Part shown: piece after piece, positions 3,106-38,326 of the stretch
Position numbering within the stretch: the stretch's first letter is position 1
Layout of the letters: each line of letters begins with the position of its first letter
From: Rhizaria sp. SCN 62-66
Taxonomy: Eukaryota
Direction of reading: 5' to 3'
DNA length: 64,000 nucleotides
Assembly: GCA_001724265.1 (NCBI GenBank)
Contig: MEDY01000017.1
Span: 1 to 64,000, forward strand
The notes under the pieces: generated by a model
Told to the model about the DNA's origin: nothing
The model's input: the letters and a program-made list of their open reading frames with translations, nothing else
Database searches by the model: none
Program-made: the position numbers and the translations under genes

Positions 3106-4203
3106 TCACATACGAGACTTCCGACGAATTGAACCGCCTCTGCGATGCATGTCATCCCACGGGCGCTACTGCCACTTTTGTTGTTGCTGCTGCTGCTGCA
3201 GATCTTGCCCATGCTTATGACGGCGCTAGATCAGCAGCGACAGGTCCGCAGGGCTTGTGGAAAGAATGTACGTTGTAGACACCGCTGCAACATCTGCCGC
3301 CGCAGATGCGTCAACAACATTGCCACTGGCAGCCGGCGACGCCGCTACAGCAGTGCCGCTTGCAGGACTGGTACAGACAGCGCTGATGTTTTCATTGTTA
3401 TGTGGTGAAGCAAGTGCGTGTCCGGCAGTGAGACCGTGCAACAACACACGATGCGGCCGCTGCTGCGACCGCTGCTGCGACCGCTGCGACTGCTGCTGCT
3501 GTTGCTGCTAATGTTGCTGCTGCTGCTGGTGGCGACGGCTGCGCACTGAAGCGACGCTGTTAGGCGGCGTAACCGTGCCGACCGGCGTAGCATCAAAGCC
3601 GACGTTTGCGCGGGAAGAGCCTGCGCGAATGCAAGTACGTGAACTCGCGCGCGTCGCCGGAGTCACCGTTGTCGCCACAAGAACTGATGCTGACACAGCC
3701 GTGGCGGATCGCGAGCCGGAGCAGGTCATAGGTGTCCGCGCGCGCGCTGTTGTCTGACTCACTGCAGCTGCGCCGCCACTGGCAGGAGTAACGTCGCGGC
3801 GACGCGAGGGCGTCATTGCGGCCACGACTTCCGTTGTTACTTTCGCTGTGGCAGGCGTTGCCGGTGTTGCCGCCGGGGTCAAGAGCATGTCACTCTCGCC
3901 ATCTGCAAACGTGAAGTGGTCGATTGCGGTCGTAGAAACAGCACCGCCTCTGGCGCCGTTGCTCGTGTTGACCGCGGCGCTGCTGCCAGCGCGGGCGTCG
4001 TCACTGTCACCAGCCTAAATGTCAGACAGCGCTGTGTCAAAGTCGTCTCGAGTGCCAGCGCCCGGGAGTGCATTGCGTGCACGATGGCCCGGACTTTGCG
4101 CGTTGCCGAGAGTGTCGGCGTTGCTGCAAGCGGGACTACGAGAGCTAGAACGACGACTGATAAACGTGTCGCCGTCATTTTTGTCAGAGCCGTCGTCAGA
4201 CAT
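3106..4203 (-). CDS. Low-complexity Ser/Thr/Ala/Gln-rich hypothetical protein (~365 aa) with four in-frame TAG codons; N-terminus uncertain
   Basis: Track ORFs 4015-4203, 3508-3888 and 3226-3447 share one frame and are separated only by TAG (4015-4017, 3508-3510, 3226-3228, plus 3166-3168). The first non-TAG stop is TGA at 3106-3108. It has two polyQ tracts and no recognisable domain. Confidence 0.6.
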
Positions 4204-5273
4204 GACACGGCTATCGCGAGCACCGGATGGGCTGAGCGCATGATCCCCATCGGCGACGCGGACATCATCACCGTTGCACTTGCTGTGATTTCCAATGATG
4301 TTTTAGCTTCAGTTTTGCGTTGCGCTTATTGTCACGTTGTTGCCAAGTGTTGTGCTCGAGATTCCCTGTTGTTTGCAAGCTGGAATTGCGAGCGTTGTTG
4401 GCGAGCACGGAGCAGCTCTTGTTCTTGGTGACGCTTTGTGTCGGCCGCAGCACATCCTGAGCAGCTGCGCAATCAATGTTCCCCTGCTTTGTTGTGTTGT
4501 ACCGCTTTAGTTCGGTGATGGGACTCACTCAACGCGTGTTTGTCGTGATCCACTTGCGCTTTCTGCGCTGAATAAGCGCGATTGAGGCAAAAAGAAAGAC
4601 GCCCTGTCAGAGAGCGGGCGGGATCTGGTGATGTCATCGTGGTATGATCGCAAGCTTTGAGAGCGCCACTTTTTAAGGTTATTTACACTGATATATGAGC
4701 ATGCTCATTACTTTGGTTTTGTCCGATCTATTTCTCGGTCGTCCAAATACAATTAATGCACAAATAAATGCACTCAAAAAACCAGAGAAGAGTCCGACTT
4801 AACAAACAAACTCATGTGTTACACAATATTCAGTGCGTGTGAGTTCGAGGATGTGTGTATTGCTAACATGGAGCGAAGACATGGTCTTGTGCATCGCTTG
4901 TCACGGCGGATCTGGAAAGGCGGCGTCGAGATCAAAAAGGACATTCGCAGTTCACAATAGAGGCAGTTTGGAGCAAGCAACATCGTAGCTGTTTGCAGGT
5001 GCGATGATTTTTTCTATAGTGCGACGATGCAGCGTTACACTGAAGAGATAAGTTGAGGAGCGCGAGGAATACGTTGTTGAGCTTGTTCGCAGGAGCGGCG
5101 ACATGGCAAGTGTGATTGCCAGCACGCGTCACTGCACACTGTCGTTGCGGTTTGCCGCCTGTGAGTTCAATGCGATCTGTAACGAGTGGCGCTGACACTC
5201 GCAAGAGCAGCGAAGAAGTGCAGCAGCGAGTTACATGCATGCGTATCATGTATTATGGCGCAGCGCATTTAAT

Positions 5274-7273: not shown

Positions 7274-8108
7274 GTTGGCTATAAAGTACCAACGAAAAAG
7301 TTCAACAGAGTGTTTATCGTGAGATATGGTCTGGTTATGGTAAGAAATCATGAAAACTGCCAGTGCGACGTCGTGGAGGGGGGAGCCGACTATTGGTCAA
7401 AGAAAAATGCATTTTTTCAAAGCTTCATGCGGCATTTTCGGCGCATTATTTCACTATTTAACACACCAACGCATTTTCTTGATTCAAGGAAAACATCAGA
7501 GCAGTTGACAATGTAATTATGATGATAACATGATTTGGCCGTCCTAGTCGGGCCGCAAAAGCCCCGAAGCCTGTCGGTGTTTGAAAACGACTGTTAAGAC
7601 CGCAAATTTTGGAGAGCCAGTCGTAGTTACCACCGACACGGAACTTGACGTGGGAGGATACCCCTTAATCAGCGCAGATCTACATTTCGTTTTTATGATT
7701 GCTTTTGTGAGGGCTCGTCGTCTCCGTGCTCGACAAGCGTGTTGGTGGCAGCGAGTCGAGGTACCTGTTTCACGAGCCAACTCCTTGATATCTGACTCCC
7801 GTTGGGGTAAGACCGCTGCAATGCCAGATATCGAACACAGGAAGCCGTGGTGAGAGCGGACACCAACCCTCTTTGTGTGAACTGAGCGCTGCTCGCATTC
7901 TTGGCCTGCTCCTGGCAGGCCAAGAATGCTCTCATCAATGCTCATATCTCAGTCTTCCTTCTTGCCTTTGTGGTCCTTGCACGTTGCCGTCGCCTTGTTA
8001 ATTTGTTAGTGGGGGCATTCGCCCATCTGTGGCTCGTTTGCCAGCTTGTATTGCCAGACCTGGTTTAACAACTTGTTCCAAGCCCCAGGGGTCTCAGCAA
8101 GAAAAGCT

Positions 8109-9761
8109 ATGTCAGAGCGGCAGCTTAACTATGACGACTTTCTCTCCGCGACAGCGGCGCTTATGTCGCTCGCGTCCACCTCCGAAGGCATTAATGAGCT
8201 CGAAAGAATTGTGGTGGTGGAGTAGCCCGGGTATGATGCGCAGCAGCTCCACCTTGCCTGCGCCGAGCACGGCCTCTACGACTTTCTCACACGGTCGCTC
8301 GGCTACGCGGCGGACGCCCACCGCCTCGAGCGCTTGCGCGCAACGCTCGCCGTCCTCGCAGCTCTGACAGCTGGCTCCCCCGGCTGTTTCGCGCTGCTCG
8401 AGTGCGGTGCGGCGGAGCAGCTCTGCGGCCTGCTGCGCCTTGGCGAGTCCTGGGTCGCGGTCACGCGCGCCGTGCAGACGCTGGCCAACATCGCCGGCGA
8501 GGGCCGCGCGGCCGCAGCGGCGCTGATCGAGCGCGGCCTGCTTACACACGTGTGCCGCCACCTGCGCGAGCTGCGCCGCGGCCGCGGCACCGCCTCCGCC
8601 GGCTTGTTAGACCTGTACCTCGCGCTGCTGGAGCTGCTGGAGCTCGTTCTGCGCGTCTCGCCCCCGCTGCCGTACAGCGCGACAGCCGCGGTCGTGCCCG
8701 AGCTCGCGCTCGTCCTGCGGCACCAGAGCACGGCGTCGTTCGCGGGGACCGGCGCGATTGCAACGGCGACGAGTTTGCTCACCTTCATCTTCCGCGAAGA
8801 CGCACCGGGCGTGCGGTTCAGCGACTTGTTCGACAGCAGCGGCGATGGCGCCAGCGGCGACGGCGTCAGCGACGGCGGCGGCGACAGCGGCGATAACAGC
8901 ATCTTTGCGCGCGTGCTGCCGCATTTGGATGGCCCGCCGCACCGGCGTGCCCCCGCACTGCGCCTTGTCGCCCAGCTCGCGGCGCTCGAGGACCAGCCCG
9001 CGCGGGCCTTCACGGCGCCCGTGCTGGCGCGTCTGCAGCGGCTGGCCGGTGCGCTGAGGCCCGGGGACGCGCGCGCGATGCTGGAACTGCTCGGGATGGT
9101 GGCGAGCCTGCTGACCGGGGAGTCGCCGCTGGTGACGCGCCTGCTCGAGGCGCGTGTGTTGCAGACGCTGCTGCCGCGCGTGCCTGCGCCTGCGCCCGCC
9201 GGCGCGCCTGCACGCCTGGCTGTGCAGCCTGGCGCGCCGGCGCAGAACGCTTGGGAAGTTGCTCATGCGCTTCACGACGCGCGGGTTTTCGAGGACAGCG
9301 CGTGGGAGATCGCGGACGAGATGGCGCGGATGCTCACCAACGCGCTGCTGCGCGCGCACACGGCCGCCGCCGATACCGACAGCGCGGGCGCGGCGGACAT
9401 GGCGCGGCTGCTGCTTGACGCGGGCGCGATGCGTTACTGCGCGCATGCGCTGTCCGCCGCCGCCGCCGACGTGTCTGCGTCCATCGAGTGCAGCCACAGC
9501 GACACTGTGGGGACTCTGATCGACGTGGCGCGCTGCCTGATCGGGGCCGGCGACCGGGCCCCGGACACCGCGGTGCTAGCCGAGGGCGCGGTGCCGCGCA
9601 ACGCGTTTTTGGCGGCGTTCCTCGCGGCGGGCGGGCGCAGCGCGGTCCGCGGGCTGGCGCAGAGTGACTGCGACGCTGTAGACGACAACTTGCGCGCCGC
9701 TGCCGCGCAGCTGGAGGGGATCATGTGCGGCATTGTGGGCACGCCCGCCGAGATTAACTAA
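8109..9761 (+). CDS. Divergent armadillo-repeat (importin-alpha-like) protein, ~550 aa, with an in-frame TAG at 8223-8225
   Basis: ARM-like segments (LAALTAGS..LLECGAAEQLCGLL; AVQTLANIAGEG...LIERGLL). The track ORF starts at a TTG (8334); the nearest upstream in-frame ATGs (8109, 8163) lie before the TAG. Ends in TAA followed by AT-rich sequence. Confidence 0.65.
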
Positions 9762-10529: not shown

Positions 10530-13500
10530 ATGAGCAGGCGTGGAGTGAAGCGCACAAAAACAGTTTCTACAAACCGCTCATCTGATTCAGACAACGAATC
10601 GCATCACCGACTCCCTCCGAGTTCAGTCCTTCGCAATCCTCTGTCACATCAGAGCATTCAATCAATGTTATCTTCCGACTCCCTGGCTGCTCAGGCCGCT
10701 GATTCTAACATTGTGTCCACTACAAGCGCCATGCTGGACAGCCTGCAAGCGCCGATCGGCGACACGGCTGCGCTGCGCCGCATAGCCGAAGAGCGCCTCC
10801 GCGCGCAGCCGCGCGTCGGCACGCCTCTCATTGACTTTTACGCGACAGCAGCGCTCTACCCGCCCATCGGCGCCGAGTGTGTCCGCGCGCTGGCGGCACA
10901 TCTCCCCGCGGATGCGTACAAGCGCCTGGTTTTTCTGTTCGTGCGTTTCCTGGTGCAGTCGCTGCCCTACGCGCCGGGCCTGCACCCCTTCGCCGTGCAC
11001 CAGCCGGGCCGCCCCAACACCGCCTACGCGGCCGCCGCAAACGCGGAGGAGGCGGGACAGGGCGCGTCGGCGCCGGTGGTGACTGCGGCGCGCGAGTCGT
11101 CGCCGCTGTACGACGCCTCGGAGACACTGCTGCAGGAGTGGTTCAACCACCTCATGTTCGGCGCCAATGCCACGGCCATCATGGCCAAGATCGCCGACCT
11201 CAACGAACGCTCGGGCTCGGGCGTGTGCGGCGCCGTGCTTACGCCCGGCGAGCCCGCGTACTACTGCCGCACGTGCGGCGCGGACCCGTCGTGCATTCAG
11301 TGCATGCGCTGTTTCCGCGACTCTGACCATACGGGACACGAAACCGTGATGGCGCACGCCGGCGGCGGCTGCTGCGACTGCGGCTCGCTCTCGGCCTGGG
11401 CGCTTGGCGGCTGCTGCTCCAAGCACAAGGGCCCGCAGTCGGCGTGCCCACCCATGGAGATCCTGAGCAAGGTTGTGCCCGAGAGCCAGGTGCGCATGCT
11501 CGTGTTCCCGGTGCTGGCTGCCGTGGCACATGCCGCCGCCACGGCGCTGTCGCCGACGCCCAACAAGGCGCCGACGCCGCGCGACGACCCGAAGCTGCTG
11601 CCCACGCACGTCGCACACTGGTACCGCCACCGCGTGCTGCCCTGGGGTGCGCTCTCCGCGGTCACGGCGCCGTCCGAGACGTTACGCGAGCGCGCGCCGC
11701 GCCACGCGCTCGTTGTGCCGCGCGCGGACCTGGCCAACATGGCGCGCCGCGCCGTCGGCGACGTGGGCTACGCCGCCACCATGCAGGGCTACGAGCGCTT
11801 CCAGGCGCAGGGCCGCAAGCCTGGCGCGGCGGCCTCGCCCGCGGTGTCTGGTGCTGAGGACTCGTTCGGTTTTGTGGCCGCCTCGTCGACGCGCTCGGTC
11901 GTCTGCCTTGAAGACATCGCCGCGCCCAGGGACTTGCGGGCCACGGCGATGAAGCTCCGCGCCGCCGCCGCGAAGCCGGCCGCCAAGGGTACTTTCGCGC
12001 CGCTGCTGCTTCTCCCGTCGGCCTCCGTGTCCTCCCCCGCGATCGCCTCGGCGAGCGCGCACGACTCTGCGTCCTCTGCTGCGTCTGCTGTGTCATCTAC
12101 AGCCACTTCTGCGTCCCCTGTGGTCCCCCGCGCGCTGCTGTCACCGTCGTTCGCGCAGTCGTCGCCACTGTACATCCTGGTGCTGCACGACACGGACTCG
12201 CACACGTACGACCAGATCGAGGCCGCGCTGACGGCCGACGTTGCGCTGCTGGGCGCGACGGCGCGCGACATTGCCACGCAGGTCGATCTACGCGGCTGGG
12301 CCGTGCTACTGCTCTCGCGCGACAAGGACCACGTGCTGGCCGTGCAGCGCGCGCTGGCGGCGCGCACCGTGCTCTCCACCGTCTACCTGCAGGGCCACGC
12401 CGTGCGCACGCCGGTGTCCGAGTTCGACGACGCGTGCGCCGCGCTGCTGCGCCGGCACCCGTAGCCCAACATCGTGGCCGCCACGCTGACCAACACCGAG
12501 ATCGTGGACCCGCTGGGCGACCCCGCGGTGGAGCGCTGGGCCGACGCCGCGTGCGGCATGGCGCGTCTCTCGCCGCAGGAGTGGGCCTGCGTCGACAGTC
12601 TCGGCGTGACCCCAACCAAGAACGGCTTCGGCGACCTCCGCAGCGAGGAGTCGCTCAATCTCGCGTTCCAGGGCGCCGATGCGGCGGCGCCGCCCATCAC
12701 CGAAGACTCGCTGGCGGACCTCGCGCGCGCCCCCGTCACGGCGACGCTGGCCGCGCGCGTGGCGCGCCGCTCGCGCGCCGTCAACGGCCACATCGAAGCC
12801 GTTGCGGCGGCAAACCCAGACTGCAGCGCGCTGAGGCTGGCTGCGCAGACGGAGCTGTTCAAGAGCCACCACTACATTTTCCCCAATTCGCCCACGGCGA
12901 CTTTTTCCGCGCTCGACAACGCGGCCTTCGCGGGCGTGGCCCCGCTGGACCAGGTTCTGCCGCCGCCCGCCGTGTCGGCCGCCTTCCTGGAGGACGCGCG
13001 ACAGAAGCCCGACGCTGTGGCGGCCGCGTGGGCGCGCGCCACGGCGGCCGGCCCCGCTGCTGACCGCCTCGCGCCCGCCGCGTATCCGTTTGAGCTGCTG
13101 CACCAGAACCTGCAATCGAGCGGGCTCGAGCGCAACGTCGCCGGCGCCGCGTCCGTGCTGGTGAACCCCAGTGACCGCACGGCGAGCGTGCGTGCGTGGC
13201 AGTCGACGCCGCTCACATCTCAGCCCGACGCCCTCAAAGCATCCTACGCCGCGCGCAACTTTAACCCGAAGGCCTGGCGCTGGGGGCTCTTTGGCGGGCT
13301 GTACCGCGACGCCGACGCCGACGCTGCCCCTGCGGGCGCGGACTCCGAGGAGGAGCACAACGCGGCTGCCCTGCCTCTCGCGCGCGTGGCCCCCGACGCT
13401 ACTCTGCCCGGCATCTCGGTCGAGCTCGCGCAGTCGCCCCCGCCCGGCCTGGTGTTTGTCACCTCCATGGGCCGTCTGAGCACGTGCATCTCGTGGCTCT

Positions 13501-16500
13501 ACTCGTTTGCCAACAAGGCCAACTGCTTTCGCCAGTCCGTCGCGTGCACGTTCGCGCTGCCGCTGATGCGTGTCGGCGTGCCGTCGCCGCTGCTCAACAC
13601 GTTTATGCCGCGCGCGGTGACTGAGGCGGGCGCGTTTGAGAACGCCGACGACGTTGACGGCGCCCTGCCCATCGGCCGCGGCTTCGGGCTGGGCATGCCA
13701 GTCCTGAAGAGCATGCTGGGTGACGCGCCGCGCGGCTTCGAGACGAGCCCCACTGCGCTCGTCACCAAGCAGCGCGCGATGCGCACGAACGTGGAACGCG
13801 TGCCCGACCGCACCCGGCGCCCGGCGAACCCGTTCCGCAACGAGCGCAGCGTTCTCTTGCCGCTCGCGCTGTGCGCTGTGCCCGAGGTCGATGTTGAGCG
13901 CCTCGACGTCGACATCACCATGGAGCCTGCACGTATTGCGCCCACGCTTGCGGGTGCACTGCTTGCCTAGGATGCGCTTTCATCTGTCGCTTCCCTCGTC
14001 GACTGGCGTTGCGCTCCCGCTGAGAACGACTCTGAGGGCCGCCGCTGCGCGGGCCGCGTCGGCGAGATGTCGTCGCCGTCATACTCGCCCACGCAACTCG
14101 CGGCGCTCAAGAACTGCAACACTATCATCCCGTCGATGCGCCACATGTACCCGCTAAAGCACGTCGTGGCCGCCAACGCCCCCGTGACGACGCCTTCGAC
14201 GGCTGGGCAGTCAGCGTCCGTGGCCGCCGCTTGCGCCGGGCTGCGTGGCTGGGCGGCGTTCGCGGCGTGGGAGGCGCGCGTCGCGGCCGACCTCGAGCGC
14301 GGCCGCGCCGAGGCTGCGCGCGTGGCCGCGGGCGCGCCCGTTGTGTACGAGGAGGACGCCGACGGCGTGTGGCGCGCCAGCTCTGCTGTGCCTGATGCCG
14401 AGGTCGCGCCTCCGCTGACGACGGCGCTGCCGGTCGGCCGCGAGGCCGGACTCGTGCTGCTCGACGCAGTGATGCGCGATAACGACATTCTGACGCCGCT
14501 GCCAGCGGGCGCGATCAACGCGCTCTACTTTGAGCTCTTTGTTAATCCTTGGTTCAAGCGCGTGTTTGCCGTGTCGTTCGCGCGTCATTACTCGGCACAG
14601 CTTGCACGTGTGATCGCTATGGAGGGCATGATGCCCCCAGCGAATCGGTTTTCGCTCATTGGACTGGGCGTGCAGGTGCTGACGGAGCCGATGTTGACGC
14701 CGCTGATTATGGCAGACTCGCGTAGCTTTTCTCAAATCATGGCAACGCTCTACACGGCGATGACCAAGGCGGCGCGCCCACTGCCCAACGGACGCCTCGC
14801 GCCCGTGTCTATGACCATCATGAACGCCGTGGCGCACGCGAACCACATTGTGGCGAACGAGGGCGCGGCACCGCTGGTTTTCCTGGCTGATATGCACCCG
14901 TTCCGCAGCTGGCTCTTTACGCTGAGCAGCATGGAGGGCATGGACGCGACCACGCGCGAGGGCCAGCGCCACGTCGAGTTTGCCTCCAACAACTGGCAAG
15001 AAGCCATGCGCCTGGCGTACAGTATTCATCCCACCACAACCATCTGGCTTCGCCGCCTGGCCTCGCTTTTTGACAATGAGCCTCTCGTTGCCTTCACCAT
15101 CAAGCAGCTGGAGGTTGCGCAGTCCAGCGAGCAGGTGATCACAAACGCGCTGCACGCCGCGTCAGGACGCCCCGTTGAGCGTCTCTACGCTCGCAAGGTG
15201 CGCACTGCGCGCGCCATCCTGCGCCAGGTGCGCGGTGCGCTGCAGCATCTGTGGCAGCGCCAGTGGAAGGAGTTTGCGGGGCCACCCGCTCTCTGCAACG
15301 CGCGTCTTGCGCTGGCGGCTGGCGACGACGAAGCCACGAAGCGTGTCGTGCCCGCTGCTGAGTTCGAGACTTTCAAGCCGGGTTACAACAACTCACTCGC
15401 TTACAAGGCCGGGGCGCGCTCTCGCGTCGCAGTGCCGTCGGGCCACTGGGTGCCGATGGCTCTCGGCGCCGCGCTCGAGACTGTGCTGTCGGTGCGGCCG
15501 CCGTGGGCATACTCCGCCTCCGAGGACGACGCTGACGCCGACGCGGGCGGCCAGTTCCGTGTCGACCCGCGCACGATGGCCGCCGAGGGGCTGCGCGTGT
15601 CCGTGTTCGCCCCGCTTCACCGCATGTTCATTCAGCTCTGCGCGCTCTTTGTCGCCAACTGGGGCGTTGAGCTTGACGACCTCCTCAGCTCCGCGGTCCC
15701 CTTCTCGCGCTTCAGTGGCGCTAAGAAAGCTTCCAACACTACGACTACTGCTGTTGAGGCAGCGGCAACATCCTCGTGTGTGGCTACCGAGACTGAACAC
15801 TCGAGTGAAGGAGCTGTGTTCATCGAGGTGGTTGACGGTGAGACTCCGGCTGAGGCAACATCGGCGACTCACGCCGCATCTGCCGCATCTGCCGCAACTC
15901 CCGCAGCGACGGCTATGACGGACGAGGGTGACGCATCTGCCAGTGCTCTGACTGCCGTGCAGCAGCGTGCCTCGCACAAGACTCCGCCATTGGTGGCCTC
16001 CGTGCCTCTTGCCGCGGCACCAAAGCGTGCGCTTTGGATGCGTTTGGCGGAGCCTGCGGCGCGCGCGATTGCGTTCAAGCTGCACACAGAGTCGAACCTG
16101 TACGTGCTCAACGGTGATGTGCCGATCAACATCTGCTTCCACTACTCGCGCGCGTGCAACCTTTCGCAGATGCTCGACGCCGACGTGGCGACTCTGCAAA
16201 TGACGGCGACCCGCCTGCGTCCTGAGTGGCTGATGACGACGCTCGCTGCCAAGTGCGGCATGCTCGCCCCGCTGGGTCTGGAGATGTCGCACGCCGAATG
16301 GGTCTCACTCGGCACGACGCAGCCTGAGGCTCGTGCCGCTAAGTTTGCCGCTGACTGGTTGAACTTGAAGAAGTTCTGGTCGCCCGAGAAGGCGGCCGCC
16401 GTCTTTGCACGCTTCTTTGAGACATTGATGCGTCTGTACGTGCAGCGCGACACGCTTTGCAACACCGACGACCTTGAGACGGGCAAGTATGTTGCAGTGC

Positions 16501-19500: not shown

Positions 19501-19847
19501 CGGGATTGGCGTCGGGAAGCGAGGAAGAGGAGTTCGCAGAGCCCTATAATGCTCTTGCTGATCGTGCTGATGCTAATGACTCAAGCTCTTCATCTGATGA
19601 CGAATTGAGGGCCCGGCTTGCCTATGCAAATGCCTCCAGTGAAGACGAAGATGACGAGGACGGTGAGATTGGTCAGTTAACTGATTTGTTTCGGATGGTC
19701 GCTCGCGGCGCCCGCCGCGACCGTCGCCGTGCCCACCGCCGCGGCGATGCTGATGCCGACGACGGCAGCTCCCAGAGTACCAGCTCAGAGAATACGAGTG
19801 AGAGTAGCCCCGCCACGAGCGAGTCGGAGATCGGCATGATCACCTCC

Positions 19848-19907
<60 letters not shown>

Positions 19908-25783: not shown

Positions 25784-28700
25784 ATGAGCAACCGTGGCCA
25801 ACGGTCCCGCCAAGGGACCCCCCGGGACACCAGGCGCGCCACGCCGCCGCGTAATCCCGTGGCCGCACCGAGCGCACACGTGTCCCCCACAGGCCTCCCG
25901 GTGCTTTCGTCTCCGACTGCGCTCGCGTCCCCGCTGCCCCCTGTGGCCGGTGACGCGCTTGCTGTGGGGCCTGCGCACGGCCCGTCGACGGCGCGACACT
26001 TGTTCGCTGATATAGCCCCGCAGGCCGGTGCTGCGACTTCGTCCTCTTCATCCTCAGCCGGCCCAGTTGACGCGACCGCTGCAGCACTCGCTGCCGCAGC
26101 CGCCACCGCAGCAACCGCCGCGACCGCCGCCCTAACTCCTCAGTCAGTCCAGCCGCCCGTGCCGCATTTCCAACCCGCTTACCGCGCGACGGACGCGTAC
26201 GCAGCAGACGCGCCCGCGTGGCCCCAAGCGCTGCTGGCGCAGGTGGCGCAGATCGGCGACAACGACGGTGACGGTGACGATGGTGGCGGGCACTCGCGCC
26301 CGGGGGTGCTCACTGTTGCCAGTTTTGGGGCCGCGCATGCAATGCATTTTGGACTAGCCGGTTCTGCAATGGGCGACGGTGATATCATTCTCGCGTCTAG
26401 TGCGACTGGAGCAGCTCTTGCTCTTGCTCCTGCTGACGGCGCTGGCTCTGCGAACGCGGCCGACGACGACAACGACGACGACGACGGTGCCGAGTACGTT
26501 CCCGGTGATTCCGCCTCAGATTCCGCCTCCGACTCCGTCTCAGCCTTGGCCTCTGACCGCGCCCCCGGCTCCGGCGCCCGGCACCAACACCGCCGGCCCA
26601 GGCGCGCCGACAGCAGCAACAACGATGACGACGATGACGACGATGACTCGGACGCTGCCCCCATGGCGCCCGACGAGCTGGCCGCGATCGAGGCCGACCT
26701 GACTGAGCTGCTGGCGGATCAAGACGAGGCCGAGACTGCGCTGTTTTTACGGCAGCGCGGCCGCCGCACAACGCGCTCCGCGGGCGCCGACCCGCGCTTC
26801 GCCGCCTCCTCCCGCTTTGCGCGCGGGGCGACGGCGCACGCCGACGCCGGCGACGGCGAGGGCGGCGCGCGCGGCGGGCGCGGCGGGCCTGCGGGCGCCG
26901 CCGACGATGACGATGACGACAATGACGACAACGGCGATGACGACGACGATGATGATGATGATGATGATGGCGATCTGGCACTAGGCGCAGACGCGGCACG
27001 CAAGCGCGCGCGCAAACTTACTCAGCGCGCGCTCGCCGCCGTGGCCGCCCCCGCGCCCCCCCGCGGCGCGCGCGCTGCAACAGCCGTTGCGACCGGCTCC
27101 GGCCCTGCTTCCGCTGGGCGCGGTGGCGCGGGTGCGGGCTCTGGCTCCGGCTCTGGATCTGGCGCTGGCGCTAGCGGCGGCGGTGATAGGGCCGACGCGG
27201 ACGAGTTCGCGCGCCACCGCTACCGTCTGCGGTCGCGTCTGCCGCAGCAGTACCCCGCGTTTGCGACCGACGGCGCCGACGACGACGACGAAGAAGAAGA
27301 TTGGCGCGCGGACGACGGTGACAGCGACTCGCGCTCTGAGTCCAGCGACAGCGGCGGCGACGACGCGCGCGCGCCCGCCGCGGACTCGTCGGTTGCCGCG
27401 GCCGATGGCGACAGCGCTGCGCTGCCGCCGTGGCGCGTTCCGGGCGGGCGCAAGCGCTCGGCGGCCAAGGAGGAGGAGGAGGAGGAGGAGGAGGATGATG
27501 AGGTGGTCGAGGAAGAAGAAGAGGAGGACGCGCTCGCTGCACTGCTCGAAGACGCAACTCGCTACTACGGCGATGCCGTTGTGCTATCCGCCGCCGACGC
27601 CGCCGATTCTGCCGTGGCGGACGAGGCCTTTGACCGCTCGAAACGCTCGCGCCGCACGCGAGCGCAGGCCGCCGCCGCGGCAGGCGCCGCTTCTGGCGCT
27701 GCCGCAGCGCAGGATCCGCGTGCGGACGAGGACGCCGCCGCCGCCGCACAGTTACGCGTCCCTATGCGAACGCGCGGTGTGCTGCTCGAGGAGCTTATGG
27801 GCTCGTCCTCGGCCGCCGCGGTAGTGGCCGCGGGCGCGCAGGCCGCAGCAGGCCTTGCGCCGCCGCCACGGGAGGACGCGCAACTGCTCGACATGCTGCG
27901 CCGCAACCGCCGCCGCGCCCCGTCCCCGCCGCCGCCACCGTCATCTGGCCAAGCCGACGCGTTTGCGGCTGCGGCAGTAACGGCGGCGCGGACCGGCAAG
28001 GTTGCGCGCACGGCGACCGCGGCCGACGCGCCGTCCGCGGCCCGTGAGCGCGACGCAAATTAGCTCGCCACGGCGACGGCGACGGCGCTGCTGCCTGCGT
28101 CTGCGCCGCCGGACGCCGCTGCTGTGGCGCCACGGCGGAAGCCGCACAAGACGAAGCACTTGTTCGACGCTTTGCGCCAGCGCGCGCTGGGCGACGAGGC
28201 TGCCACACTGCTGTCGTCTGCTCAATCGCCTGGCGCGTCTAACGCCCCCGGGCGCAAGCGCGCGGCGGCGGCGCGCGCGGCTGAGGACGAAGACAACGAG
28301 GTGTACGTCGAGGAGGAGATCGATGAGGATCTGTCGTCGCGTGACGTGTCCGACCAATCCGACGACGGCGCCGCGTCCCGCCCGCGCCGCAGCCGCCGCG
28401 CCGCCGCCTCTGCTGCGTTCGACGCCGCAGAGGGCGGCGAGGACGGCGTGGGCGGGCGCGCGCACCGCACGACCCGCGGCGGCGCGCGCGTGAGTCGCCG
28501 TGAGATCGTCGATATCATGCGCGACAACGCGCGCACTAACGCGAGCCAAGCCACGGCTGTTGCCGCCGCGGCCGCCGCGGCTGCCGCGGGATTGCCGCTT
28601 CCCCCGCCGCCCGGCGCGGCAGGCCCCGCGGGCGCGTTTCCGCGCCGCACGCGCGCTGCATTCCGCGCGAGCTCTGCGATCAAGGCCGCCGAGGCAGTGC

Positions 28701-31700
28701 TGGCGGGCGCCTCGGGGGCCACTGCGGCTGAGAGCACGGTCGACTCGGAGTGGATTGTGCGCGCGACAACGCGTCACCAACCGCAGGCGGCCGCAGCGCC
28801 CGTCACGGAGCGTGATCATGCGGACGCTGTGCAGCAGTACGATCAGTTCGCGCTTGCGGCGCCGAACTATTCAGCAGAGGCGCCAAACGGTGGCACCCTT
28901 GCTCTCGAGAATCTCAGCGCGATCCCTGCTTCAACACAGACCACTGTGGCGCTTGCTGAGAAGAAGAAGAAGCCAGCCACATCCCTTCTCACGCGTCTTA
29001 AATACCTGCGCAAGGCACGCGCACCGCGACACCCCACGGCGTTTGTCGCGCCCGAGACTTTGCTTGCCGCACTGCGCCGCGGCGCACGCAAGGCGGGCAC
29101 GTTCACACAGATGTCGCTCTTGGCCGCGCACGAATGGCTGCGCATCACCAACACGGCCGCTCGCGACGTGCGTGTACTCGCTCTTTGGATGGCGCGCGCC
29201 GTGTCGTCCGACCTTAAGATTCCACGTGTACTCCCTCCAGCTGCCGAATCGAGGTGTGCGACGGCTGTCCCGGCTCTGACCCGTTCCGCGGCACAAGCTC
29301 ACACCACCGGCGACTCAGCACCACCCCTGCCGCTGCCGCACCAGCTTCTCCGTCGCTCGATGCTTGCGACGCAGGCGCTGAGCACCCTCCTGCGCGGGCG
29401 CTCTGTCGCGGTGCCCCCGCGGCTTGCCCAGGCGCTGACTCTGTGGACTCCCGCGCGCGTCGACCGGCTGCGCGCGCAGGCCGAGGGCGTGGCGCAGCTC
29501 GCGCTGCAGCTGCGCTGGCTCGCCGCCAACCGCGAGCAGTACTACGCCCCCGCGCGGTTCGCGCCGCCGCCTGCGCCAGTGGCGCCCGAGCCCGCGGCGC
29601 TAAAGCGGTTCCCGTCCGTGGCCGCGGCCATGGCGAGCGCGGAGCTGCCCGGCGGCGGCGCGGACGCGGAGTTCGACGGCGACGCCGGGTGGGCGCCCGC
29701 CGCGTTGCAGCGGCTGCGGCTTGCATTGACGCGCTCCCACACCGCGCTGCTACCGCGCGAACCGGGAGAGGTCCAACCCACCGCGGCGGCGCCTCCGGAC
29801 GGGCTGTGGCGGCTCATGCAAGCGGGTCTGCCTCTCTCGCCCGCGCACGCGCAGGATTTACCCTCTGCGTCGGCGTCACACGCGGTGTTCGACCCGCGCA
29901 TCGACTCGCTTCCGCCGGGCCAGAGCACGGCGTTACGCGCCGCCGCACAGCGGCTCACTGCCGGCGGCGGCGGTGACAACACGGAAGCTGTGCCTGCGCT
30001 GGGGGACGTGGGCACAGGCACGGCCGAAGAGGAAGAGAAACAGCACAGTGATCAAGCGCAGCGCGAGCGTGCGTCTCTGCGAGCAGGCTTGGGTAGGACT
30101 GCATTGCTGTCTGGGCTGTCTTCTGTCGCCGATGTGAGCAGTGGCGCACCGGAGTTGCGCGGCCGTGGCGGCCGCGGCCGCGGCAGCCGCGGCGGCCGCG
30201 GCGGCCGCGGCGGACGCGGTGGGCGTGGCGGCGTCGGTGCTCGCGGCGCCGATGGCGGCGGGACCGAACGCGCCGCTGATGACGACGCTGCTGGCGACGC
30301 CGAGGCCAACGCCAACGGAGACGAAGCTGCTCCCGTGGAGGCTCTCATGAGCCCCGCTGATCTTGCTGCACTGTCTGCACGCGGCGAGGCGACGCCTATC
30401 TACATGCCTTTGCATATCAGCGCGATGCCCGCGGCAACGGTGACTCTGGTGCCTGATCCGCGTGACCGCGTGCGTGCAGGCCCCCATTTCTCGATGAGCC
30501 TGTCGCGCGGTGAGATCGCAGCCGCCGCGTCTGCGATTGCGGTGCGACTCTATAACGAGTTCTCGCTTGCGCGTGCAGTTGAGACGCACCGTGCGCGGAT
30601 TCGTGCTGGTGATGACAGCGATACCGATGCTTCGGGTGATTACTTTGTGTCGTTGGCAACCCCTATCGATCTGCTTGAGATGATTGACAAGAGTGCAGAC
30701 ACTGAGCAGGAAACAGTTTCACGAAGTTCCTATCACTGTTACACAGTGGTGCGCTCGTCTCGGCTCAATAACGCGTCGGCGGGTTCAGATGACGTTCACA
30801 CGCTCGTTGCACAAGACGATGCTACGGCTACCCCAGCTTTCATCGAGGACGCCCTCGCTGCGACTGACGCGAAAATCGCCGCGTTTACCCCTGCCCCTCT
30901 TGGGCGCGGCCGTCGCTTGGACGAGTCAATCTGGCTCGATGGGGCTGAGGTGTCCGCAGGCCGCTGGCTCGGTGTGTCACCGTACGACCAACGGCTGCTG
31001 AGCACTGTCAGTGTGCGGCGTACTTGCAACGCTACGCTTCTGCCTCTTTCTGAGTGGCCACAGCACGCGCGCAATCTTGCTGCTGCTGCGGTGATCAGCG
31101 CCGCAACATCAAAACTCGATGGAGCTGAATCAGCCAACGCGACATCGGCGTCGGACTCTGCTTCCAGTCATGACGTTCTTAGTCCACCAGCTGTATCACA
31201 GCATGCCGCCGCTTCTCTTGCCGCTGGCGTCGGCGTGTGTGAGCCCGACGTTTGGCGCGCACTACAGTGGCACCGCTATTGCACCGCGCAGTACGGACCG
31301 CCGCTTGCGGCCCCGCTCTCGCCCGTCCTGACGATCCCGGCTGTGTCGGCGCCGACGTTCGCGTCGCTGTTCCCCGGCAGTGGGTTTGACGTGCCTGTGC
31401 TTGTCGCCACCGGGTCTGCGCTGGAGATCTGGGATCGCGCGCCGTCTGCGCTCGACCGCAAATCCGCGCGCGCCGGCGCACTCGCTCTTGCGCCGCAGAG
31501 TGAGACACGCCGCAAACTCTCGAAGGCCTTGATTTCATCTCTGATGAGCCCGGGCGAAAACCTATCTAGTGTCGACAGTACCTACATGCGCAAGATCTTG
31601 GCCGACACATTTATACCGCCTCCGCCGCCGCACCCGTCCGCGCACTTCCACGCGCCTGGTGAGAGCAGTGCACCGGTCGCCGCGGCGTGGCGCGACTGTG

Positions 31701-34700
31701 CGCCGCTGCGTGATTGGCCCGCGGCGGAGCTCCTGCTGCGCGTTGCTGCTCCGCACCCACTCGCGAGTTTCAAAGACGATGTCGCTGACGCAGTTGCAGC
31801 TGCGGTGGTTGCCGCGCCCCCGTCCGTCACGGCCCTCCGCCCGTCCGCTGCGGGTGTGCCGCTTTTGTTTCTGTCAGGCTCAGCGCTTTTAGCGCAGATT
31901 CCCCGCGCTCTTGGACTTGACTAGGTGTTAGGTCCTGTGGCGGATGACAGGCTCGGTACCACATCCGCGCCCATCGCGCGTTTTACGCAAGTGCCGCGGA
32001 CCTCTCTTACGGAGTGCGAGTCCGAGTCGGTCGCTGCGGCGGTGCTGCGTGACACAGGAGGGCTTTCGCGGATCGGCATCAACGCGCTGTCCGCAGCCGT
32101 GCACGCCGCTTTCTCTGACCCGCACACCGGAGCTCCGCTGTACTCGCCGGAGCTGCTGCCACGGTGGTGGAACGTGCATCAGGTCGACTATAGCGCTGCT
32201 GCACTCGCGCCCGCTCACTGCGCGACCGCGTTGTCGTCAAAGGCGTACCGCTTTTCCGAGGCTGAGACGCGGCTTCTTGCCCGCGCTGCGGCCCGGTACG
32301 GCCAGCGGTTTTACGCGCATTGGCAGCGCCGATTTTTACCTGCACACGCGGTCAGTGCGCTTAAGAACTTGTGGTTCCGGCGCCGCGATGAGCCGACGCC
32401 ATTGCCAGCATTGCCTCCTCTGCCGATGTCCAACAGCTCTGCGGCGGCTCACAACGCTGCGTATGTGCGTTGCGAGCATCCGTTGTTTGCCCCCGCCAAT
32501 CAAATCGCTTCAGTAGCGGCGACACGCTTCTCAGCACCTCTGCCCGGTACGACTGCGGCTTCAGTTTGCTCATTATCTCTTCCAGATGTGCCGCAGCTTG
32601 ACCAATATACCGCGCCCGTCTCATGTGATGGCCCCGCTCTCCTGGCGACTACGTGTCGCGTTGCTGCGTCGCCGAGCTCGAACCCGGCGCTGACGTCATT
32701 TGTGCCTCTTGTACTCGGTGCGGCCGCAGGCTTGGATGCGCTTACCACGGCAGTGCCCGCGCCGGTCCTATTTTCGGACCCTGCTGGCGACGCGTGGTGT
32801 CGTGTTCCCATGTCCGTGATGTCCGCGTTAACGTTGTGCTTTCCCCTCTCGTTTGCTGTCACGTCGGGCTTTGAACGCGTTGTCAGCGGCCTGACATTGC
32901 TGAACGCGCAGACCGCAGCGCGGATGACGGTAAATGATCTATTGACTTCTGTGTGGACGCGTCCAATTCGACTTCCCTCTGATCACTTGGCCGCTTTCCC
33001 GCGCAAGCCCGTTGACTCGTCCAAAATAGGTGACGCAACGCGGCCCGCTCTTAAGGGTTCTGGGCAATCGCGCGCCGCGAGTGCTTCGTCGCGGAATACC
33101 AACACGGCGTTGACGTGGCTAAATAATCCGCACTGTGCGTTCACCCGCGCGATCGGTCGCGCACTGACATTCTGCTCCACGGGCGCGGTGATTGCGGTCA
33201 CCGCACTGCCGTCCGCAGACACGCTGCCTACCACGCATGTTCCCCCACCAGTACGTGCCTCGACCACGGCGTACTCTGCTGGTGGTGATACCATGGCAGG
33301 GCTGCTGATTACACCTACTGGGGCTGACACGACGGATGTGCCAGCACCCACACAGCTTAATATGCTTGAGGACGCTCTGGGTGTGACTGCAGCATCCCGT
33401 GCGATCTCGAGCCTTGCACTGGTCCGTGTCGACATTGACGGACTCGCGCGACGCTCTCCCTCAACTGCGATGCTTGGTGACGTCTCTCTGCTGCAACTGC
33501 CGGTCACGTTTGTGTTTAATGGCGGGGATCTTCCAGTGCCTTCCGTGTCCGCACAGGACGTAACAGCTTTAGAGACGCAGACTTACACCGGGACTACGCC
33601 TAGAGACAAGCTGCAACAGGCGATGACTGTTGTAGACACCGAGATTGACCCACCGTAGCTCGTGCGCGCGCGGCGCGTTGAGGCTCTCTGGGTCAACACC
33701 TCTTGGCAGCGGCGCGTTGCTCTTGCGCTTTGCGAGCTTGCCGCGTTGATTCCCGCGGTTGCGTTGCGCGTATTCGCGCTGTCACCAGGAGCCCGCGGCC
33801 GCTCTGACATCGCCGTGCTGTCAGCTGTGGCCCGTTTGGTGTTCCAGTCGCTGCCGTCCCAGCTGACTGCGCCGCTCGTCAGCGCCGGTCGCGGCGCTGC
33901 ATGGGCGTTTGAGGAGGTATTGCCGCGCGTCCCGTGGTCCCGGGCTCCGTCGAACTGGCCGACTCTGGACCGGATGCGCACTGCGTTCACCACTGGTAGT
34001 GGCGGCATCGTGGTAGGTCTGCCTTACTCGACCGTTGCAGTGGCACTGTGGGCGTATCTCCGCGCGCAGCGCGATGCTGAACAAGCACGTGATACCGGGA
34101 CTGATCCTCTGCATTCGCCGTGGCTGCCCCAATGTATCGGCGTGACGTCGATGCTGTCTTCCTCGCTCCCGTATCTGTACTTGAACACACTTTCAACCTC
34201 TGCTGCCGCGTTAACGACAACTGTGAGTTCGAGCGAAACCGGGTCTGAAGCGGTTTGCGAACTGGATGGTGTTGCCGCATCCATCGGCAGTGCGCTTGCG
34301 ACTGGCACATCGTCCTATGCGCGCGCAATCGCTACTGCAGCAGCAGCGCTTGCGTTGCCGGTATCCTTGCCTGTCCTTGCCCCAACTACCCTGCCCATCG
34401 GCTGTGAGATTACAGCGCCCAACGCGCTGTTTTTCCGCCAGCCCAACGTGCGGTCTGCGCTGCCCCTGCTCGCGAGCGCGCTCGACTCCACCGCCGTCAC
34501 ATCGGTCGCGATGGCGAGCATGGGCCCCGGCGGCGTGTGGGCGATGCGCGCGCTCTACTCACTCGGCCTGCCACCGCTGCCGTTCGCGCCTGGCGGGACG
34601 GACGCCACAGTGCGCGATGTGGCCTCCGCGAAGCTTGCTGGCAGTCCCGCCGCTGCGGCAGCGCACGAGGCGCGCGTGCGGCACACACTGCGGCTGAAGC

Positions 34701-37700
34701 GTTTCGCGCAACTTGCGCTGCTCACGAACAAAGTTGACGCTGAAAGAGGCACTAATAAGGCCGCGCCCGTCGCAGAGAGCCGTCCCAACGTGCTGCACCT
34801 AACGGGTCCGTCTATCTCCACTGCCACAGCATTAACCGTTTCGGATGGTGCAGCGGGCGCGGCGCAGCCCGCGCGGCGCGGACGGCGTGCGACTGGACAC
34901 GCGCGCGGTCCCGCGCTGACTCTGTCGGCGACGATTCTCGTGACGCCGCCCGCGGTGCTGGCCGCGGTCACCCCGTTTTCGCACGCGCTGCTCCCCGCCG
35001 TGGCGACGTACGTGGCGCGGTATGGCCGCAGGTGGTCGATGTTGGCGCAGTTTCTCGCGTCGCAACCGCTCGCAGCGGGTTCGCCGCCCTCGGCGCTGAC
35101 GCTGGCTCGCTGGGCGCGGAGGATCGAGCGCGCAGCGATGCGGATGATGCCGACATCCGTGGTTGAGGTTGCGGACGCAGGCGATGTCGCGATTCCGCCA
35201 CAGGAACATCAATTCGGCGTTAACACTGAGCTGCCTGGTCTCCAGCTGGAGGATCCCATGATGATGCTCGATGCCCCTGCACTAATGCCGGCCAATCACA
35301 GTTCTGCGTTGACGGTGGTGGAGGGCGACGATGCGAGCGCACTGGGTCACATGCTCATCACACCGCCGCCCTACGGCGGCGCGTCATCTCACCGACACGG
35401 TCCCCATGGCGCCGGTGCCGGCGCTGCGCCGCTGCTTTTGGGGCCGCCGCAGTTGAACGGGCCCTTCTCATGGCCGATGGTGGTGCATGACGGCGAGTCG
35501 TCGTCGCACGCGGACGGCGACTCACAGCTCGTCGAGCGCAGTGTGCATGAGTCTCGTGTGCAGGAGTCTCCCGCCGAGCGTCTCGACTCCGGCTCCGACT
35601 CGGACAGCGATGATGATGACGACGACGGTGACAACGGTGACGAAAGCGAGGGCGAGGGCGAGAGTGAACCGGAGGAAGAGACTCTCGAGATGATCGAGCA
35701 GCGGCGGCGCGAGTGGCTGGAGATCTGTCGCTCGGTCGGACTGGACGCGAGCAACCCACTGAGTTCTGCGGATAAGCCGCTGGATGAGCTCATTGCCGCC
35801 GCAGTGTTGGCGTCCAAGGGCGGCGACGCTGCGAAGGAAACGCTGCGCGACGACGACGACAGCGAGGACGCAGACGAAGATGAAGACGAAGAAGACTACG
35901 TCGGCGACGCGGGCAGCAGCAGCGAGAGCAGCAGCGACAGTGAAGCCGCCGACGCCGTGTCTGGTGAAGAAGAGAACGAGAGTAGCGCCGACAGCGGCTC
36001 TGACGGAGACGAGAGCGTCATCCGTGCTGCCGCGCAGCCGCGATTTCGACGCCGTACGCGCAACACGAAGAAGGGCGACGACAGCAACGACGGCGACGAC
36101 GACACTGAGGGCGAGGGGGATGTCAGCTTAAGCGAGTTGGACGACAACGATGACGATGATGCGCGTGCGAGCGACAGTGATGGCGCCCATGACGCCTCAT
36201 CGTCGTCGTCAGACTCAACCCACGACGAAGATAGCTCCGGAGCCGATGATGAGAGCGCCGACGAGGACGAAGACGACGACGATATCAGCCACGGGTCCAC
36301 CGATAACAGCGCCACTGTGGGCAGCCCCACGGCGCCGTCCCTGATGACCGGCGGCACTGACCCGCGGCGCCGGTTCCGCGGCGCGTCCCCCGCCTCGGGC
36401 TCAGCGGTGGACTCGCGCATGGGCTCGCCCGGCCTCGCGTCCGCCGTCTCGGGCCAAACGGGCACGCGCCTCGGCATCGCTGCGACTGCGCACTCCGCGA
36501 CCGTGGGATCCGCATATTCGCGCTTTCAGGGCGCGCGTCCGCCGCTGAAGACGGCCGGGATGCCCGCGGCGGCCGCGTCACTGTTCGACCAGCACCCTGA
36601 CAAGTTCAAGGTTGACCCCCGTTTGCTGCCCGATTACGACGTTGACTCAGATTACAGCGGCGATGACGGGCCTCCGGCGGGCGACGGCGCGGACAGCGAC
36701 GAGCTTAATAACGACCCGTACACTGACAGCGACGACTTCGAGGACGACGACATGTTCAACGAAGAGGAAAATGACGACGATGTTGACGGTAACGACGACG
36801 ACGACGACGATGCGCACGACGCAGAGTTGACGCTTGATGATCTTCCCGTCGCACAAGTTTCTGTGATCACACGTAAAAACAAAGGACGTTATTTTCGCAA
36901 CAGGTTGCACGCGTTTGTGATGCCGCCACGTCTGCGTAACGTAAACTCGTGGCACATGGGCCGCTTTGCGCGTTTGAGTTTGCTCCGCAGCACATACGCG
37001 CGCGCACCGGAGGAGGGCCGCTGGGGCTCTTGGCGCATGCCTACTGATCCCTTTGCGCCTGCTGCGTTCTTCTGCTTAGGCGCCGGCGAGGATGGGCCTT
37101 TTGACCAAGAGCGCGCCGTGCTTGTCGCGGACGGCCGTGCGGTTGTGCGTGACAACGTGGCGCGTGTGCTGCCGCAGCCGCTGCCGAGCATGGTCAGCAC
37201 CATGCTGCAAGAGCGTGCGCGCCACCTCAAGCCGGAGTGCCCCAATATTGCGCTGCAGCTAGTCGCGCACACGACCGTTCCCCGCGACAGCAGCGACGCC
37301 GCTTCTCTGTGCTGGCTCTCAGAGCGCCGCTCAGCGGCGCTTACATCGGTGCGTACGCACACTGACCACGTCGTCACGCGCGCGCAGCCGCTGCTGTTGA
37401 TGTCGTCCGGCGGCCAGTTCGACGTGACGAACCGCCGACACTACGACGCCCGCGCGCGCCACGAAGCGCGCGTGCCGATGCCGGACAAGAAGGACTCTGT
37501 CGCTGTGTGCGCCGTGCCGCGCAGCACCGCATGGGACTCGTCGCTGCCGATCCACGCGCACTTGGCGCGCGCTCTTGCGCGCTCGCACGCGGTCCGCCGC
37601 GCGCCCCCGCGTATCGCAGTCGCCCCCGGTGGCGTGCCTCCGCCTGCGGCGTTCGGGCTCCTGCGCGGCGTGCTGTTGTCGGACCTGTACGTGCTCGGCC

Positions 37701-38326
37701 GCGCGTCGCCGCCCTCGCCGTGGGCGCTGCCGGCGGTGGAGCTCGAGGAGCTCGGCGACCACGTCTTCTCGTACTACTACGCGTCGCCGTACTCCACCGC
37801 GCATCCTGGGCTCTGCTTCTCGGGCCCGCCGCCCTCACAGCAGCAGCAGGCCGCGGACGAGCTCCCCCCGGTCGTCACGTCACTGACCCCGGTCGGCGTG
37901 GACGATAACGGCGTTCCCGTGCCAGATCCTGCGGCCTCGCTCGTCACCGTGTCGTCCTCGTGGGCGGCCTCAACGGCGTGGGGCGTTGAGACGGACGCCT
38001 GGAGTGCGCTACGCGCCGAGCTCATCAAGCGCCAGCCGCATTTGCCGCCGCCAGCGGGGCCGAACGAGCTCTCGGAGACGCTGGTTGAGGTGCTCCACGT
38101 GCTCGCCCGCCGCCGCCTCCGCGCACTGCAACGGACGTCAGAGAAGCTCTGGGCTGGTCGTCTGCCGGTGCCTGACGATCTCCGTGTGCGCGCGCCCGAA
38201 CTACTGCCTGCGCGCGCGCTGGTCTTTGCCCGTTTTCCGCTGCAGCGTCTGCGCACGCGCGTCAAGGTGCCGCCCCTGCCGTCGCCGAATGCGGCTGCCA
38301 ATGACGGCAAGGTTGCGCAGAAGTGA
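25784..38326 (+). CDS. Giant GON4L/YY1AP1/DUO3-like nuclear protein with Myb/SANT-like motifs, ~4180 aa reading through TAG at 28061-28063, 31922-31924 and 33656-33658
   Basis: Four track ORFs in one frame, separated only by TAG; terminal TGA followed by an AT-rich spacer. Motifs resembling GON4-family blocks: acidic stretch then RVSRREIVDIMRD (~28487), WTPARVDRLRAQAEGVAQLALQL (~29443), Myb-like FSEAETRLLARAAARYG...RRFLP (~32250), second Myb-like YVARYGRRWSMLAQFL (~35009). The CDS is well supported; the family call is moderate. Confidence 0.7.
30158..30232 (+). repeat. CGCGGCGGC-type 9-bp repeats encoding an RGG box (RGRGGRGRGSRGGRGGRGGRGGRGG)
   Basis: Visible in the DNA and in the translation of the 28124-31924 ORF. 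Confidence 0.85.

Follow-up and report, generated by a model that had tools for sequence, protein, structure and literature searches.

Nuclear genetic codes in which UAG and UAA differ in meaning have been reported from a handful of lineages (PMC5304391, PMC11687900). In the cercozoan exLh (Sainouroidea), which lives in an insect, nuclear UAG encodes leucine and translation ends at UAA and UGA (Pánek et al. 2017, PMC5304391); 384 in-frame UAGs were reported there for 71 transcripts, with UAA as the terminator in 56 cases and UGA in 15 (PMC5304391). The fornicate Iotanema spirale reads UAG as glutamine and keeps UAA as a stop (PMC5304391), and reassignment of UAG alone has been described for phyllopharyngean ciliates (to leucine, and twice to glutamine), Protocruzia tuzeti (glutamine) and the green alga Scotinosphaera (serine) (PMC11687900). 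The present analysis concerns positions 1 to 64,000 of contig MEDY01000017.1 (Rhizaria sp. SCN 62-66, assembly GCA_001724265.1); this whole 64-kb stretch is called the window below, and ten TAG codons lie in frame within four of its genes. The initial annotation had proposed that UAG is translated in this organism and that UAA and UGA remain stops. This is probably correct: UAG appears to be a sense codon in the nuclear genome, with UAA and UGA as the terminators.

The window resembles exLh in that UAG alone appears as sense, in that genes end in UAA or UGA, and in a link to Cercozoa through a myosin gene. The 13 gene models of the window (17,016 codons) ended in TAA (6) or TGA (7) and never in TAG, as had been noted earlier, and this held after the end of one gene, encoding an S28-peptidase-like protein, had been revised. 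UAG is unused as a terminator in this set, while both other stop codons are used. Two related metagenome contigs, L001 and L002, contributed five further gene ends, which read TGA, TGA, TAA, TAA and TAA. No internal TAA and no internal TGA was present in the 13 models, again as stated before; the absence is partly a matter of construction, because the open reading frames (ORFs) were delimited by those codons. Unlike exLh, in which genes carry several UAGs each, the window contains about 10 UAGs in 17,016 codons (about 0.05-0.06% of codons), a more than 10-fold lower use, and unlike exLh with its insect habitat, the organism is met repeatedly in sequencing runs from wastewater and bioreactors. 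The ciliate and Scotinosphaera cases are similar in that UAG was captured alone, repeatedly and independently, so that UAG and UAA can uncouple; they concern other lineages, and the residues there were assigned from tRNAs and from inference across whole genomes or transcriptomes, whereas the present case is based on a window. It is probably a new case of a known kind of code change, to be placed beside exLh, Iotanema, several ciliates and Scotinosphaera. Each new UAG-only case tests the evolutionary coupling of UAG with UAA.

All ten TAGs were verified at the positions and on the strands first given for them, namely 8223, 12462, 13968, 28061, 31922 and 33656 on the plus strand and 4015, 3508, 3226 and 3166 on the minus strand. 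Read with the standard code, the plus strand shows abutting ORFs in the same frame, of 686, 501 and 3727 codons and then of 798, 1286, 577 and 1555 codons. When TAG was read as sense, the first three fused to one ORF of 4916 codons (10404-25154, 2 TAGs) and the other four to one of 4219 codons (25667-38326, 3 TAGs). Two controls were run in the same way. With TGA as sense, the main ORFs changed from 3727, 1922, 1555 and 1531 codons to 3727, 1922, 1601 and 1577 codons, and with TAA as sense to 3764, 1924, 1555 and 1531 codons. As the controls barely altered the main ORFs, the fusion of frames is specific to TAG.

Coding potential was scored as codon-usage log-odds, trained on TAG-free genes only. 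The score was positive in the same frame over 50 codons on each side of TAGs 8223, 12462, 13968, 28061, 31922 and 33656, and it was also positive across TAG 4015 (0.47-0.51, 30-codon windows). At TAG 3508, inside a polyglutamine run, it was about 0-0.1, and it was negative downstream of 3226 and 3166. By this pattern seven TAGs are firm, 3508 is plausible, and 3226 and 3166 are doubtful. The claim that a coding-like frame resumes after every TAG stands at seven sites, meets a score near zero at 3508, and is not backed by the score after 3226 and 3166.

The longer fused frame encodes a UBR1-like E3 ubiquitin ligase (10530..25154, plus strand, stop TAA; the start, ATG 10419 or 10530, is uncertain). 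It contains two in-frame TAGs, the first at 12462..12464 (amino acid (aa) 687) and the second at 13968..13970 (aa 1189). Pfam domains were located on the 4916-aa read-through ORF as follows: zf-UBR at aa 274-341, the UBR1-like wing at aa 2032-2120, and PRT6_C at aa 4757-4886. Thus zf-UBR lies before both TAGs and the wing and PRT6_C lie after both, the first TAG falling after the UBR box and ahead of the wing and the C-terminal domain, and the order of the three domains is that of single UBR1/PRT6-type proteins. In a PDB search with the UBR1-like protein, the UBR box matched full-length UBR1 and UBR2 chains, and no match was obtained outside the UBR box.

The second fused frame, referred to as giant gene 2, extends over 25784..38326 (plus strand; about 4180 codons when counted from its first ATG, ending in TGA) and has no Pfam domain. 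Its three in-frame TAGs are at 28061..28063, 31922..31924 and 33656..33658, corresponding to aa 799, 2086 and 2664 of the ORF. Inspection by eye showed Asp/Glu-rich runs and two Myb/SANT-like stretches in this protein. It is one of two very large Pfam-less proteins of the window, the other being encoded by 1922 codons at 53593-59361 on the minus strand. A helical-repeat-like gene of a family that was not recognised (8109..9761, plus strand; 551 codons from ATG 8109, stop TAA) carries a TAG at 8223-8225, which is codon 39; the start of this gene must precede the TAG, because the next in-frame methionine is about 350 codons further on. The fourth gene (3106..4203, minus strand) encodes a low-complexity protein rich in Ala, Ser and Gln and contains TAGs 4015, 3508, 3226 and 3166, its ORF ending with TGA at 3106.

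Standard gene calling has split the giant genes at their TAGs, so that they are found in public collections as the separate 'proteins' P0123, P0124, P0126 and P0131-P0135. Split proteins of 498, 577 and 573 aa are among these, some with invented GTG starts, and the UBR1-like gene is stored as separate proteins of 577 and 498 aa. Since the public gene calls break at TAG, the proteome of this organism is mis-annotated and fragmented there.

The TAGs were then compared with contigs assembled for a second sample of the source study (X2), for a strain of a different study (X4) and for a polyA metatranscriptome (X5); the figures of a further set, X3, were identical to those of X2, of which it is probably a duplicate deposit. 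Contigs of X2 covered 13968 (record 1), 28061 (record 6) and 31922 (record 7) with 0 differences each. The strain variant in X4 (record 24, 2778 nucleotides (nt)) retained TAG 31922, its 13 differences all being elsewhere. Two protein fragments called on one more variant contig, P0124 (577 aa, differing by a single residue from the window sequence) and P0131 (498 aa), terminate or begin exactly at the TAG sites of the UBR1-like gene: P0124 is bounded by a stop at the 12462 site in the strain variant, and P0131 by both sites. Hence four of the ten TAGs (12462, 13968, 28061 and 31922) were reproduced by independent assemblies, either directly or through protein ends, and an assembly error, which had been named as a possible refutation, was not borne out at these four. 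No contig among those listed bridged TAG 33656.

A polyA-RNA contig (X5 record 31, 27932-28222) spans TAG 28061 with 0 differences, without a gap and unspliced. No splicing or editing is visible in this contig at 28061, the sole site with RNA cover; none of the listed RNA contigs lay over 13968, 31922 or 33656, which is uninformative either way. RNA contigs also cover parts downstream of TAGs. Reading frames and domain architecture run on beyond the TAGs, which are genuine and fixed at the DNA level at the four sites reproduced.

Selection beyond the TAGs was assessed from 40 of the 62 strain differences between the window and X4/X5, namely those listed, of which 37 fall within the two giant ORFs. 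All 37 coding single-nucleotide polymorphisms are downstream of at least one TAG. Synonymous changes made up 21 of the 37 and non-synonymous changes 16, and 24 were at codon position 3. When the same base changes were placed at random on the same bases, 11.2±2.7 were synonymous, and 21 was reached in none of 2000 simulations. The only 3-nt indel among the strain differences is coding and preserves the frame. Of two 1-nt indels, one falls between genes; the other, called at partial depth, is located within giant gene 2 at a distance of about 600 nt from a simple-repeat region. The synonymous excess beyond the TAGs, together with the domain order of the UBR1-like protein, indicates that the downstream sequence is translated; purifying selection continues past the TAGs. 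In-frame UAGs are followed in this window by a continuing frame, by further domains and by constraint, as in codes in which UAG alone is sense.

In NCBI translation table 15, to which the initial annotation likened the code, UAG stands for glutamine. The window is like Iotanema and table 15 in that only UAG is sense, and TAG 3508 interrupts a stretch of CAG and CAA codons (QQQQQH-TAG-QQQQQQ), as expected if it arose from CAG and is read as glutamine. Because TAG is one transition away from CAG and this codon lies within such a run, glutamine is weakly favoured, and a reading of UAG as glutamine may be offered as a weak guess from this sequence context; I. spirale itself belongs to an unrelated supergroup.

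Homologues that would align over a TAG were sought in several collections, by exhaustive and by word-based comparison. No Pfam match overlapped any TAG. A search with aa 400-1500 of the UBR1-like protein against 1.84 billion representatives returned 2 hits, both of them fragments of the window itself, and a search with aa 500-1300 returned 2 hits, the window's own fragment and a near-identical strain variant (1 aa different). With aa 1886-2864 of giant gene 2, the only hit among 5.8 billion protein clusters was again its own fragment. Length filters of 440-1402 aa were applied to the UBR1-like searches and of 538-1714 aa to the giant gene 2 search. Exact-peptide scans with the UBR1-like protein gave no match in metagenome or genome contig collections, and a scan of viral contigs with peptides of giant gene 2 gave none either. 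A search for paralogues inside the window gave Ala-rich low-complexity matches and nothing else.

The myosin of the window was also used as a probe. Its alignment scan had no match among genome contigs and detected 26 loci among metagenome contigs, of which L001 and L002 were examined. L001 (85% myosin identity) holds only the myosin and a 2OG-oxygenase-like ORF and has no TAG. L002 (1-20637; 62% myosin identity; 51% guanine plus cytosine (GC)) has 0 TAGs in about 5,100 ORF codons and three TAA terminators. The gene order beside the myosin of L002 differs from that of the window, and its 3061-aa neighbour, tried as an orthologue of giant gene 2, was rejected as unrelated.

Several observations weigh against UAG as a sense codon. 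Its depletion is about 17-fold, with 11 observed in the gene models against 188 expected from base composition; one of the 11, in the S28-peptidase-like gene, was later assigned to an intron. TAG is absent from the 8 better-conserved genes, which comprise about 6,600 codons. Given the codons used in these genes, 64-65% of nonsense mutations by a single base change would yield TAG, and the finding that all interruptions are TAG and never TAA or TGA is therefore weak evidence if taken alone; the earlier argument from TAG-only interruptions keeps its observation and loses part of its force. The tally of stops is limited to 13 gene ends in the window. TAG 3226, past which the coding signal fades, could be a genuine terminator and thus the true end of its gene. 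In the searches described above no homologue covered a TAG, so that they provide no support of the Codetta type and no assignment of a residue. RNA cover exists at one of the ten sites, in the form of contigs and not of reads, with carry-over of DNA into the RNA library possible, and the selection test rests on the 40 listed differences.

The main rival explanation is leaky, context-dependent readthrough at individual sites with no reassignment, in which UAG would be a weak terminator genome-wide, read by near-cognate tRNAs in poor contexts. It is unlikely, yet it accounts for the great rarity of TAG and its confinement to low-constraint genes, and for the possibility that TAG 3226 is a true stop. 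The base 3' of the in-frame TAGs also fits it, being C in seven of ten cases, G in three and never A or T, whereas a purine follows 10 of the 13 real TAA and TGA terminators. C occupies 26.7% of first codon positions, and its presence after seven of ten TAGs has a binomial P of 0.005 (post hoc, n=10). A C at position +4 is the poorest termination context in eukaryotes, and the bias may reflect selection for weak termination context. Translation that passes UAG is likewise a feature of programmed UAG readthrough, for example of the viral UAG-CAR-YYA type, and the window adds its excess of C directly 3' of the TAGs. Unlike that type, the TAGs of the window share no hexanucleotide: the codons after them are CCC, CCC, GAT, CTC, GTG and CTC on the plus strand and GCT, CAG, CGC and CGC on the minus strand, a variety that agrees with the initial annotation. 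Folding of the 100 nt downstream was no better than that of shuffled sequences (z -1.98 to +1.16). The earlier conclusion that a shared readthrough motif is lacking was thus upheld apart from the bias at the first base, and no stable downstream structure was detected. Moreover, where a gene holds two or three TAGs, full-length protein could be made only by readthrough of multiplicative efficiency, yet the downstream parts of these genes are under purifying selection, and TAG ends none of the 13 genes, several UAGs per gene being a further difference from programmed readthrough.

Nonsense mutations in decaying or dispensable genes, for example in pseudogenes or in one haplotype, with TAG as the most accessible stop, are improbable as an explanation. 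The high share of TAG among single-step nonsense mutations speaks for them, as does the nature of the affected genes, which are huge and of low complexity and whose TAG regions had no homologue in the searches. However, the two giant genes contain 0 frameshifts and 0 TAA or TGA codons in about 9,050 codons, and at 0.65 per event a series of 8-10 events that all give TAG has a probability of 0.01-0.03. The synonymous excess beyond the TAGs, the identical TAGs fixed in several strains and samples, and the RNA contigs over downstream parts are equally contrary to decay.

An artefact or a removal at the RNA level, by assembly errors, small in-frame introns or mRNA editing, is the least probable of these explanations, for although introns exist and RNA covers one site in ten, four TAGs recur in independent assemblies, the RNA contig retains TAG 28061, and no in-frame GTRNGT...YAG intron candidate, donor or acceptor, was found within 250 nt of the ten TAGs, whose 60-nt windows have 50-70% GC, real introns having 41-45%. 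As causes of the pattern, gene decay, introns, editing and misassembly are all unlikely.

That UAG is a sense codon next to the stops UAA and UGA is hence the preferred reading, and the part of the original proposal that concerns translation of UAG is favoured by the separation of domains, the conservation of the TAGs, the RNA contig, the synonymous excess, and the lack of intron and readthrough signals. UAG would then be translated as an amino acid in nuclear genes that terminate at UAA and UGA, and would be a rare sense codon used mainly in long, fast-evolving proteins under low constraint. Its count of 11 in the gene models agrees with this, matching those of ATA (11) and AGA (12), the least used sense codons. 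Decoding would presumably require a tRNA whose anticodon is CUA and an eRF1 that recognises UAG poorly. A tRNA scan of the 64-kb window detected none, and no eRF1 gene lies within it.

A more specific and tentative possibility is that UAG was captured recently and independently in a free-living cercozoan and that the process is at an early or ambiguous stage. UAG would in this case have disappeared from gene ends, would still be no commoner than the least used sense codons and be tolerated mainly in weakly constrained giant proteins, and would be preferred with C as the next base. Given its rarity and the C context, its decoding may still compete with recognition by the release factor. Very low use of UAG together with a biased +4 context could show early stop-codon capture, and if the early-stage interpretation is true, the organism would offer an intermediate in nature by which codon-capture and ambiguous-intermediate models can be tested against each other. 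DNA and RNA of the organism can be obtained, since several studies have met it in engineered wastewater systems.

The organism was placed by means of the myosin. Among the listed matches, the closest relatives in the motor region were the metagenome proteins P0003 (88% identity), P0004 (73%) and P0005 (69%). A tree was calculated from 65 rows, consisting of the first 57 of 120 listed hits and of named ones further down, with the other listed hits excluded. The window grouped with P0003, then with P0004, P0005 and P0006 (SH-aLRT 100), and this clade joined the MMETSP Cercozoa strain D1, P0008 and one Paulinella paralogue (SH-aLRT 96), so that Cercozoa are the nearest relatives with a name for this myosin. 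A Cercozoa-like organism is moderately supported by this placement, which rests on a single member of a paralogue-rich gene family and on hits that include no named sainouroid sequence. As the myosin falls near Cercozoa, the phylum of exLh, an independent origin of the present code is unproven. In the open full-text literature (supplements and subscription journals not covered), PMC5304391 was the one paper found to describe sense UAG in a cercozoan or any other rhizarian, and none was found for an organism from wastewater.

The set of ten TAGs was retained after inspection of the introns, but the genome does have introns, and other TAGs that open a frame fall into intron or untranslated-region (UTR) DNA. 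The introns are of the ordinary GT-AG type, 148-205 nt long, with 41-45% GC. That of the myosin gene (47551..47721, minus strand; 171 nt, GTACGC...TGCAG, GC 0.45) served as the reference. It splits the WW domain, one half of which is encoded by exon 1 (47722..47875, minus strand; ATG 47875), and it was revealed by alignment with the 84%-identical relative P0003 (P0003/L001), whose N-terminus is uninterrupted. The S28-peptidase-like gene (5274-7351, minus strand) has two putative introns and a final exon that ends with TAA at 5274-5276. Its intron 1 would run from a GTAAGT donor at 6091 to a pyrimidine-rich CAG acceptor 205 nt on, and its intron 2 would comprise 148 nt, ending with TCTCTTCTCTAG. 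This model is based on splice signals, 41% GC and phase; a Pfam search with the two short putative exons alone gave no hit.

TAG 6005, considered as a sense codon or near-terminal stop, was rejected, being intronic in this model. TAG 59362 was also rejected as sense; a long pyrimidine tract precedes it, and it is the intron acceptor of the 1922-codon gene on the minus strand. TAG 1402 (minus strand) sits immediately before the B-box domain and was rejected as probably belonging to an intron, the alternatives being an acceptor or codon 8 of the B-box gene. TAGs 8007 (plus), 51023 (minus) and 51960 (plus) were rejected because they lie in low-GC intron or UTR DNA. The additional frame-extending TAGs (59362, 1402, 8007, 51023 and 51960) are found in DNA of 34-47% GC.

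The proteins of the window are eukaryotic. They comprise a WW-motor-MyTH4 myosin, Utp14, the UBR1-like E3 ligase, a 2OG-Fe(II) oxygenase, CH-domain, EF-hand and B-box proteins, the S28-peptidase-like protein, and several large proteins without Pfam domains. An Rfam search of the 64-kb window gave no match, hence no rRNA is present there. DNA nearly identical to that of the window is present in runs of several studies on bioreactors, wastewater and activated sludge, and the contig is best explained as derived from an uncultured, GC-rich, intron-poor eukaryote of wastewater and bioreactor communities. GC-rich triplet repeats (GCN/GGC) at about 23533-23550, 27137-27172, 28281 and 30173-30213 draw unrelated metagenome contigs; the depth there reached 314 with many false joints, and cover at these repeats is uninformative on the organism. 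The GC content of the 64-kb window ranges from 50 to 72% and is uneven along the contig, with about 51-56% at 1-8000 and 47000-53000 and 60-72% in the remainder. The parts of low GC contain the smaller intron-bearing genes and the strand switches.

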